This document shows, piece by piece, positions 5,296 to 39,997 of a stretch of DNA of 64,000 nucleotides; position 1 is the stretch's first letter, and each line of letters starts with the position of its first letter. Both the position numbers and the translations under genes were made by a program. The notes under the pieces were generated by a model, which ran no database searches, was not told the DNA's origin, and saw only the letters and a program-made list of their open reading frames with translations. The stretch is from an uncultured Verrucomicrobiae bacterium (GTDB lineage: Bacteria; Chlamydiota; Chlamydiia; Chlamydiales; Rhabdochlamydiaceae): positions 1 to 64,000 of the forward strand of contig OY970364.1 of the NCBI GenBank assembly GCA_963718565.1, in the 5' to 3' direction.

Positions 5296-5554
5296 GAGGG
5301 AATTGCAAAACTCCTCGCCGCATAAAACCGCGCCTTTGGCACCTGTCGCCTTGGCGGCGGCTGCCTTTCGGCCCCGGTTCGCTCTTCGCTCACCTGCTTT
5401 GCTACTTACGAAGGTTCCCCGGACCTTCTCGTGTCTTCGCAGCCACTTATCCAAGCATGCTTTCGCCGCCGCCAACCGAACCCGCTGTGCGGGTTCTGGC
5501 AACAGGTGCCAAAATCATCGATTTTCTGCTGGCGAAGAGTTTTGCAATTCCCTC
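5296..5554 (-). mobile_element. MITE family A, long form, inverted relative to 1347-1604
   Basis: Reverse complement of copy 1 with a few substitutions; TACA on both flanks. Confidence 0.9.
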
Positions 5555-25636: not shown

Positions 25637-25818
25637 GAGGGAATTGCAAAACTCCTCGCCAGCAGAAAATCGATGCTTTTGGCACCTGTTGCCAGAACCC
25701 GCGCAGCGGGTTCGGTTGGCGGTGGCGAAAGCATACTTGGATAAGTAGGAGAGCCGCCGCCAAGGCGATAGGTGCCAAAAGCGCGATTTTATGCGGTGAG
25801 GAGTTTTGCAATTCCCTC
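25637..25818 (+). mobile_element. MITE family A, short form (182 bp)
   Basis: Near-identical to 2417-2598; flanks ACTT/ATTT (imperfect TSD). Confidence 0.9.
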
Positions 25819-34623: not shown

Positions 34624-34695
34624 GAGGGAATTGCAAAACTCCTCGCCGCATAAAATCATCGATTTTCTGCTGACGAGGAGTTTTGCAATTCCCTC
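34624..34695 (-). mobile_element. MITE family A, internally deleted (72 bp)
   Basis: Both 24-bp TIRs retained; TAAA on both flanks. Confidence 0.88.
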
Positions 34696-38405: not shown

Positions 38406-39170
38406 TTAATAACACACACGTTTCAAAATTAAGCCATGCGCAGGGGCGGTGATGCCAGCTAAGGTACGGTCTTTGCTTGCCAAGATCATCGGGATTTGAT
38501 CTGCCTTGATCTTTCCGCATCCCACGTAAGCAAGGGTCCCTGCGATATTACGCGCCATTCTAAATAGAAAATGATCGCCCGTCATACAAATGTTAAGACG
38601 GTTTTCAGAATGAAAGAGAATTTCAGTGTTCTCGATTCGGCAAATCGGATCGCGGTCCCACAGGGAGCGCTCATTGCAAAAGGCCGAAAAATCATAAGTG
38701 CCGATGAGGTATTCTGCGGCTTTTCTCATCTTTTCGATATCTAAAAAATATGGGAAGTGCCAGGAAGTATGACGGAGAAATGGCAGCTGCAAAAATCCAT
38801 GGCAAATCTGATACCTATATTCTTTTTTCACACAAGAAAGCGTGGGATGGAAATCCTCGCGCATCTCTTCAGCGCTGACAACGGCGATTTCTTTAGGGAG
38901 CATTCCGGGGGAATTGCAATTCCCTCTTCCATTTAAACTAGACTGCAAGGACTTTAAACAAAGAACTTTTGAAGTCATGAAATTGACGACTTGTCCTTCG
39001 GCGTGGACTCCCGCATCAGTGCGGCTAGCAGCTTGAAGCTTGATTTCATGTTGAAGGATTTGCCGAAGAGCCTTTTCTAAAGTTTCCTCAATACTCGGCC
39101 CCATTTTGGTTTTTTGCCAACCCACAAAAGAGGCACCGAAATAGGTAATGACGAGTTTAATATTAGACAT
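38406..39170 (-). CDS. truA: tRNA pseudouridine(38-40) synthase with an 8-aa MITE-derived insertion
   Basis: ASRTDAGVHA, GTYDFSAF, FLFRMARNIAG, TAPAHGL; true start MSNIKL overlaps the marC stop (TAATG). Confidence 0.93.
   Translation of the reverse strand: MSNIKLVITYFGASFVGWQKTKMGPSIEETLEKALRQILQHEIKLQAASRTDAGVHAEGQVVNFMTSKVLCLKSLQSSLNGRGNCNSPGMLPKEIAVVSAEEMREDFHPTLSCVKKEYRYQICHGFLQLPFLRHTSWHFPYFLDIEKMRKAAEYLIGTYDFSAFCNERSLWDRDPICRIENTEILFHSENRLNICMTGDHFLFRMARNIAGTLAYVGCGKIKADQIPMILASKDRTLAGITAPAHGLILKRVCY
38907..38926. mobile_element. Minimal family A palindrome inserted in frame in truA
   Basis: GGGGGAATTGCAATTCCCTC flanked by TTCC on both sides; 20+4 = 24 bp. Confidence 0.85.
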
Positions 39171-39997
39171 TACTTGGAAACGTAGTTTATACCGAAACAA
39201 CATGAAGAATCGGTTTTTGGCTGCGCTGGACATCCCAGATTTTGATCCCGGCTGCATCTCACAACTTGTTCAGTGTGCCTGCTTCCCTGACAAAAGAGCA
39301 ATCGTGCTCTTTTGTAAGTGTCCGCAGCGCCGCCGCTTCGCTGGTTCAAACTCCGGGCGCCAGCTTTGCCAAAATCTCGATTCTTCATGTTGTTTCGGTA
39401 TACGAACATATCGGTTCCTTCGAGGAACATCTGCACAGCGATCAACGTCAAGATTAGGCCCATCAATCTTTCACAAGCGACAAGGCCGCGCCATCCTAAA
39501 AGTTTCTTCCATAAAGAAGAACTGAGCAAAATCAGTGTCGAGGCTGCCCACGCAATGACGATAGCGCACAGAGGGAGCATTAAATCATTGTTGTGCTGGC
39601 CTGAATAGAGCATGACAGCGGCCAAAACCGCAGGACCAGCAACTAGAGGGGTTGCCAATGGAACGATGAAGGGTTCTTTATCGTGGGGAAGTTCAACGTC
39701 TGGATCTCTTCTACCCGGGAAAATCATTTTTAAAGCGATGAGGAAGAGAATGATTCCTCCTGAGATGAGGATTGTCGGCATTGTGACGTTGAGAAAACCG
39801 AGCAAAGCATCACCGATAAAATAGAACAGGATGATGATGATGAGCGCAATGATGAGTTCGCGGATAATGATTTTGTGATGTCGGCTCGCATCAATGTCTT
39901 TTAGTACCGAAACAAAAATTGGGACGTTTCCGATGGGATCCATCAGCAAAAAAAGCGCAAGCGCCATTGAGAACATATGCATCCACCAGGAGTCCAT
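39170..39997 (-). CDS. marC: MarC family membrane protein with a 71-aa in-frame MITE insertion
   Basis: MDPIGNVPIF, GGIILFLIA, VPLATPLVAGP, ERLMGLIL; 275 aa minus the 71-aa insert gives 204 aa. Confidence 0.9.
   Translation of the reverse strand: MDSWWMHMFSMALALFLLMDPIGNVPIFVSVLKDIDASRHHKIIIRELIIALIIIILFYFIGDALLGFLNVTMPTILISGGIILFLIALKMIFPGRRDPDVELPHDKEPFIVPLATPLVAGPAVLAAVMLYSGQHNNDLMLPLCAIVIAWAASTLILLSSSLWKKLLGWRGLVACERLMGLILTLIAVQMFLEGTDMFVYRNNMKNRDFGKAGARSLNQRSGGAADTYKRARLLFCQGSRHTEQVVRCSRDQNLGCPAQPKTDSSCCFGINYVSK
39188..39402. mobile_element. MITE family F (TA-flanked, IS630-like ends) inside marC
   Basis: 25-bp perfect TIR TATACCGAAACAACATGAAGAATCG / CGATTCTTCATGTTGTTTCGGTATA. Confidence 0.9.

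Follow-up and report, generated by a model that had tools for sequence, protein, structure and literature searches.

How did a 20-bp palindrome, bracketed by two copies of a 4-bp sequence, come to lie in frame within the truA gene of an uncultured member of the Rhabdochlamydiaceae, and is it a native part of the protein, the remains of a larger mobile element, or a mobile element in its own right? The window analyzed here is a stretch of 64,000 nucleotides (positions 1 to 64,000 of contig OY970364.1, assembly GCA_963718565.1), and the genome to which it belongs consists of one contig of 2,284,058 bp with 43.6% G+C. The original prediction had placed TTCC-GGGGGAATTGCAATTCCCTC-TTCC at 38903-38930 inside truA, and the window sequence reads exactly so. 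The locus is composed of the following features:

38406-39170, minus strand: truA, encoding tRNA pseudouridine 38-40 synthase; 254 aa, intact, with the 8-aa insert as residues 81-88.
38903-38906, no strand assigned: left copy of the target-site duplication, TTCC (GGAA on the coding strand), read from the window sequence and present as a single GGAA in the relative.
38907-38926, no strand assigned: 20-bp remnant GGGGGAATTGCAATTCCCTC, two outer family A tips joined at TTGCAA, as judged from the junction microhomology.
38927-38930, no strand assigned: right copy of the target-site duplication, TTCC, read from the window sequence.

The product is a TruA protein both by its profile score, which lies above the cut-off (TIGR00071, 144 bits against 142.85), and by its catalytic aspartate motif (SRTDAGVHA), which is intact. 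The same product has a PF01416 match in the Pfam profile search, and E. coli TruA (1dj0_A) matches it with an E-value of 1.7e-34. Residues R50, T51 and D52 occupy invariant columns in an alignment of 32 sequences, in agreement with the earlier statement that the RTD motif had been spared. Around the insert the protein reads SLN-GRGNCNSP-GMLPKEI, and the 24 bp made up of the 20-mer and the duplication correspond to eight codons and are free of stops in every frame. An AlphaFold model built from the 32-sequence alignment has a mean pLDDT of 92.8, falling to 69 over residues 81-90, and places the insert in coil between a helix (72-80) and a strand (95-103); in this model, GRGNCNSP extends the loop between the two. 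Most of the genomes searched encode two TruA paralogues that are about 36-42% identical (with an entry at 2262902-2263633 in the window genome), and the copy with the insert is the one beside marC.

Orthologues of this TruA came from 28 relatives within the order and from three metagenome loci, and the eight residues fall into an alignment gap in all 31 of them, as the claim that the segment has no counterpart would have it. The closest relative (L003; protein 83% identical) carries the empty site with a single GGAA, AAC-GGAA-TGCTC, where the window has AAT-GGAA-(20-mer)-GGAA-TGCTC. The difference between the two DNA sequences is thus exactly the 20-mer and a 4-bp target duplication. With the outer tip of a MITE family (family A) at both ends, a 4-bp duplication around it and an empty site in the relative, the insert is almost certainly the remnant of a family A element together with its target duplication. 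Nothing lies between the two tips, and the family sequence beyond them is absent; we class the truA copy as a remnant or minimal form of family A and not as a full member.

Family A is abundant in this genome. The sequence GGGAATTG is found at 225 places on one strand and at 212 on the other, and pairing of the tips gave 96 elements with the TIR GAGGGAATTGCAAAACTCCTCGCC..., which fall into size classes of 20 bp (n = 19), 47-137 bp (n = 23), about 182 bp (n = 26), about 258 bp (n = 19) and others (n = 9). The two ends read GAGGGAA-TTGCAA-AACTCC... and ...GGAGTT-TTGCAA-TTCCCTC, and a second subfamily has the first 17 tip bases in common and then continues with TAACAAAACGGGG.... Perfect 4-bp duplications surround 37 of 45 full-size copies, and the target is biased, with T as its first base in 40/53 cases and A as its last in 34/53. 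A 137-bp copy at 1524109, for instance, has the duplication TTAA. The window itself holds five longer members:

1347-1604, no strand assigned: family A copy of 258 bp, duplication TAAT.
2417-2598, no strand assigned: family A copy of 182 bp, duplication TTAA.
5296-5554, no strand assigned: family A copy of 259 bp, duplication TACA.
25637-25818, no strand assigned: family A copy of 182 bp, flanks ACTT/ATTT.
34624-34695, no strand assigned: family A deletion derivative of 72 bp, duplication TAAA, with its junction at the 6-bp microhomology AAAATC.

The 20-mer in truA had been read as two family A tips fused head to head, and this holds with a refinement: the tips contribute 13 bases each and overlap in the hexamer TTGCAA. 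Compared with the family form GAGGGAATTGCAATTCCCTC, the truA copy differs by one base (19/20 identical), and its core GGGAATTGCAATTCCC (38909-38924) is a perfect 16-bp palindrome that occurs 16 times exactly in the whole genome. With up to two mismatches, GAGGGAATTGCAATTCCCTC was found at 22 places genome-wide and a reversed control pattern at none; 14 of these are exact, five (including truA) have one mismatch and three have two. Perfect 4-bp duplications flank 14 of the 22, and the other scars of this kind that had been foreseen thus exist (21 further 20-mers, 13 of them with a perfect duplication). An additional copy with three mismatches carries the duplication TGAC, while the copy at 422975, with two mismatches, fits better into the class of one-sided remnants described below. 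Two 20-mers have inverted and not direct flanks (TGTA/TACA and CCAG/CTGG), giving perfect palindromes of 30 and 28 bp. Such flanks would fit hairpin-templated correction, and these sites seem to fold in vivo. The DNA hairpin of the consensus 20-mer has a predicted energy of -6.0 kcal/mol, and none of 200 shuffles folds as well.

How the short forms arose was approached by aligning the derivatives from both ends to the family A consensus. Among the 23 derivatives of 47-137 bp, 20 different types of junction can be told apart, at microhomologies of 0-6 bp, so that the interior of family A has been lost in many ways while both ends and the duplication stay. In the 20-mers, the junction lies at a 6-bp microhomology in all 19 of the set (TTGCAA in 17 and a one-base variant in two). 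We also found 13 one-sided remnants of 20-22 bp, consisting of the first 20-22 TIR bases, ending in CCTC and bearing a perfect duplication on both sides (e.g., at 722531, 1783741 and 2236206). A deletion running from the inner CCTC of one TIR to the terminal CCTC of the other explains them. Since they could hardly be moved as two-ended elements, they argue that in-place deletion down to about 20 bp occurs in this genome. Perfect duplications are rarer in the short forms (27/45) than in the full-size copies (37/45; Fisher p = 0.035), as expected if the short forms are on average later stages, but the 20-mers alone (14/22) do not differ significantly from the full-size copies (p = 0.13). The outer tips of the 20-mers have diverged at 11 of 440 bases and those of longer copies at 36 of 1680, the latter counted on 168 tips chosen by their inner sequence from 184, with the other 16 (at least three mismatches) dropped; this equal divergence gives no sign of the scars being older.

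Some of the 20-mers lie within genes. By a crude rule, which asks for an open frame of at least 60 codons beyond both element ends, four of the 22 20-mers are inside long frames, compared with two of 77 longer elements (Fisher p = 0.021) and none of the 13 one-sided remnants. The frame is kept only by the 24-bp form. Besides truA there is one secure case, an RluD-like pseudouridine synthase (PF00849 and an S4 domain; L042/L047) with the 20-mer at 1426097-1426116, where the protein reads FHC-RGNCNSL-YSIP a few residues before HRLDKDTSG. It is the copy with the inverted flanks TGTA/TACA and the 30-bp palindrome, and its insert is absent in all nine orthologues examined (a tenth match had no locus and was left out). 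A third 20-mer is in a putative ORF (2129506-2130630) that has no Pfam family and no match in 12 relatives, and the remaining one of the four is probably upstream of a start codon. A 20-mer near nrdR lies upstream of the start of the zinc ribbon. All three mid-gene 20-mers are read in the GNCNS frame.

The truA insert is, in our view, probably the end state of an in situ collapse of a longer copy. We infer that a family A member entered truA at GGAA after the split from the closest sequenced relative, duplicating 4 bp, and that its whole interior was then lost in place, by a deletion that would have fused the TTGCAA of one terminal repeat (positions 8-13) with that of the other. Because this hexamer is self-complementary, it stands in the same orientation in both terminal repeats, as a direct repeat at the foot of the hairpin that the element can form, and what remains after deletion from one copy to the other is precisely the 20-mer. 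This might have happened by strand slippage during replication across the hairpin, or by break repair after excision, in which newly copied ends would first anneal at the self-complementary TTGCAA; the sequence would fit either route. The 24-bp product would have restored the truA reading frame. Neither the 20-mer nor the one-sided 21-mer can be shortened any more in this way, and both would hence accumulate as end states. Several observations count against the collapse. The tip-rich relatives hold no 20-mer, although an intrinsic hot spot should show there too. Two 20-mers, at 1184289 and 1185592, are just 1.3 kb apart (by simple arithmetic, 22 copies would be expected to give about 0.26 such pairs). 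No longer-element allele was seen at any of the 22 sites. In a separate search for paralogous sites, a comparison of the 150-bp flanks of all 22 copies with the genome gave no duplicated site with a longer or an empty allele.

The main competitor is a 20-bp palindrome that is itself mobile. A transposase acting in trans would recognize tips of 10-13 bp, the 20-mer would have inserted into truA directly, and the 22 copies would represent an amplification within the lineage; on the evidence that follows, we regard this as unlikely. The original prediction had offered collapse and mobility of the 20-mer side by side. Its view of the insert as a tip-derived scar is borne out, whereas between its two alternatives the evidence leans toward collapse.

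What keeps a mobile 20-mer alive is mainly the comparison with relatives. With up to one mismatch, there are 19 copies in the window genome and none in 40 relatives with the same tips, so that its abundance is specific to the lineage. The 16-base tip itself (up to one mismatch) was found in 25 of these 40, spread over several families of the order, with 68, 62 and 23 matches in G008, G009 and G010. A single search pattern for other tiny derivatives gave seven in four relatives of the genus (29-54 bp overall, 25-50 bp between the two-base tips) and three in the window genome. The relatives thus have seven other derivatives and no 20-mer against three and 16 here (Fisher p = 0.0002), where the 20-mers of the window genome are represented by the 16 exact 16-base cores. 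A mobile 20-mer would also account for its single junction type, set against 20 types in the 23 other derivatives, for a tip divergence equal to that of the family and for a target bias like that of the family (T first in 9/12, A last in 7/12, compared with 40 and 34 of 53). Short derivatives can evidently be copied, since two 113-bp derivatives share private changes. These two belong to the A2 subfamily (1094713 and 2264281), have the same junction and show no matching 4-bp flanks.

Other findings speak against it. Ten to 13 bases per end without a spacer fall far short of what DDE transposases are known to require, and a 20-bp duplex would hardly allow its two ends to be paired. The one-sided remnants of 20-22 bp with perfect duplications indicate that in-place deletion makes products of this size, and perfect duplications are no commoner around 20-mers than around full-size copies. 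The excess of 20-mers within open frames would be expected if 24 bp entered genes directly, but selection explains it just as well, the 24-bp form being the only one to keep the frame. In a scan of one genome per bacterial or archaeal species, a single exact 20-mer was found in each of four other, distant chlamydial records (L064-L067), titled Simkaniaceae, Waddliaceae, Chlamydiae and uncultured bacterium. Their flanks are decayed and one of these genomes is without any other family tip; a lone 20-mer in such a record is what would be expected of a lasting scar. That tips with nothing between them were transposed in trans and amplified in one chlamydial lineage seems, taken as a whole, slightly more doubtful still. 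If true, the palindrome would rank as the smallest mobile DNA element to make a target duplication, and it could insert eight residues into proteins directly.

A mobile 20-mer also lacks a transposase gene bounded by its tips in this genome, where no autonomous element with family A ends was found; on this search of the window genome, family A does not qualify as a MITE in the strict sense, one moved in trans by a known IS. A 1740-bp tip-bounded stretch (1624273-1626012, L001) was considered as an ISAs1-type parent, its ORF being an ISAs1-family transposase (NF033564, E-value 1.8e-81), but self-comparison identified bases 73-1373 as a separate 1301-bp IS nested in an A2-type MITE, which rules the candidate out; this IS has 12 further near-identical copies in the genome. 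Tip-bounded stretches of 1634, 1727, 2058 and 2595 bp were rejected as partners as well, holding host genes, an integrase-like ORF or a second large ORF. Two more A2 copies carry inserts, at 320392-322449 (integrase-like ORF) and 1251729-1254323 (543-aa ORF), and the integrase-like and the second large ORF may be of IS3 and IS66 type, respectively. A2-type MITEs seem to attract insertions. The three repeat-bounded end sets derived for other DDE_Tnp_1 elements (from four seed ORFs of 630, 378, 541 and 318 aa) are unlike the tips, and no common transposase was found within 2.5 kb inward of solitary tips.

By comparison with both the collapse and a mobile 20-mer, the idea that the insert is a native, lineage-specific extension of the TruA loop, or a chance palindrome unrelated to mobile DNA, has next to no probability. 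The site is indeed a variable loop, and in one relative (L017) a 10-residue insert lies slightly farther upstream, while L014 carries one of 4 residues. However, 19 of the 20 bases are those of a 22-copy repeat, an exact 4-bp duplication faces an exact empty site in the relative, none of the 31 orthologues has the insert, and the 16-mer (up to two mismatches) has one match in the window where 0.05 are expected from 100 shuffles. This reading is refuted in practice. That the 24 bp are an artefact of assembly is just as improbable, since short-read contigs from the public runs X1 (38705-39071) and X3 (38858-39017) span the insert without any difference or gap and thus exclude the slip of a single assembly, although these runs may be the window's own source. 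The truA stretch is present in one study with four runs, the insert being spanned only by these two contigs; both carry the window allele, and no alternative allele was seen in them. A metagenome scan with TruA gave no near-identical strain but six loci of other species with 37-73% identity.

Short palindromes within bacterial genes have been described before. Rickettsia palindromic elements (RPE) are, according to PMC10969869, MITE-like sequences of about 150 bp that sit within protein genes without breaking the frame; they code for a conserved peptide. The truA insert resembles them in being a mobile palindromic repeat, found in an obligate intracellular bacterium, that sits in frame in a housekeeping gene, with an open frame and an intact host protein, and the RPE type of in-frame insertion, with the host frame kept, is what we see in truA. 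Compared by description, the two differ in that the object in truA is remnant-like, 20 bp with a 4-bp duplication and from another phylum, whereas RPE measure about 100-150 bp.

In its outcome, the proposed collapse is closest to the nearly precise excision of Tn10, which reportedly removes the DNA between short direct repeats located within the inverted terminal repeats. It is said to leave a palindromic remnant of about 50 bp with the target duplication kept, to be independent of transposase and to be helped by the inverted repeats. The likeness is one of outcome only, the TTGCAA junction being present in both TIRs and the duplication intact in the truA copy. Tn10 excision is reportedly a laboratory event that involves longer repeats; here, a 6-bp self-complementary hexamer would leave a 20-bp remnant, and, unlike with Tn10, a natural genome carries about 20 fixed copies, of which two lie in frame within genes. 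Internally deleted MITEs and other non-autonomous derivatives of DNA transposons likewise keep their ends and the duplication and lose the interior at microhomologies, with many junctions. Eukaryotic cut-and-paste excision footprints usually keep a few bases of each end, but here one product of 10 + 10 bases dominates.

A further comparison is with REP sequences, extragenic palindromes of 20-40 bp with a GTAG or CGTC head (PMC3733652). The 20-mer is similar in size, palindromic shape and copy number; it differs in its GAGG head, its 4-bp duplication and its sequence, which is that of the tips of TIR elements, and it does not fall under the REP/RAYT type. REPs are moved by RAYT enzymes and are not known to make a target duplication. 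In the main-text passages of the chlamydial literature covered by our searches (including PMC9723776, PMC9997750 and PMC9769881), neither this repeat family nor scars of this kind are mentioned.

If the collapse took place as proposed, it represents a way in which a gene struck by a mobile hairpin element can be rescued although excision is not precise. The self-complementary hexamer in the terminal repeat would direct the collapse to 24 bp, with the frame kept and a stop-free loop peptide as the result. A clean rule would thus predict the deletion product, and the second gene that was struck adds to its interest, two pseudouridine synthase genes each carrying a scar in this genome. Although they are a record of past insertions, such scars are easily overlooked by repeat finders and may pass for native indels when proteins are aligned. 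The 20-mer is strongly in excess in a single lineage and, should this stem from mobility of its own, the known minimum of a transposable substrate would be lowered.

Further repeats were noted along the way. A 22-mer, GAGGGAATTGCAAAACTCAGGT, occurs five times (358673, 582256, 1356990, 1884452 and 1161154), each time followed by unrelated sequence and with no clear duplication. A second MITE family has the tip TATACCGAAACAACATGAAGAATCG, matched 29 and 35 times genome-wide. Its main size is 173/174 bp, and it likewise includes two short derivatives, of 44 and 51 bp. The original prediction spoke of two independent families around marC, the one in truA being the second to hit there, and this is right: a 215-bp element of the family with the tip TATACCGAAACAACATGAAGAATCG lies between marC and truA (39188-39402). 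The marC frame continues through this element to the start of truA, which would give MarC a foreign tail of about 70 residues.
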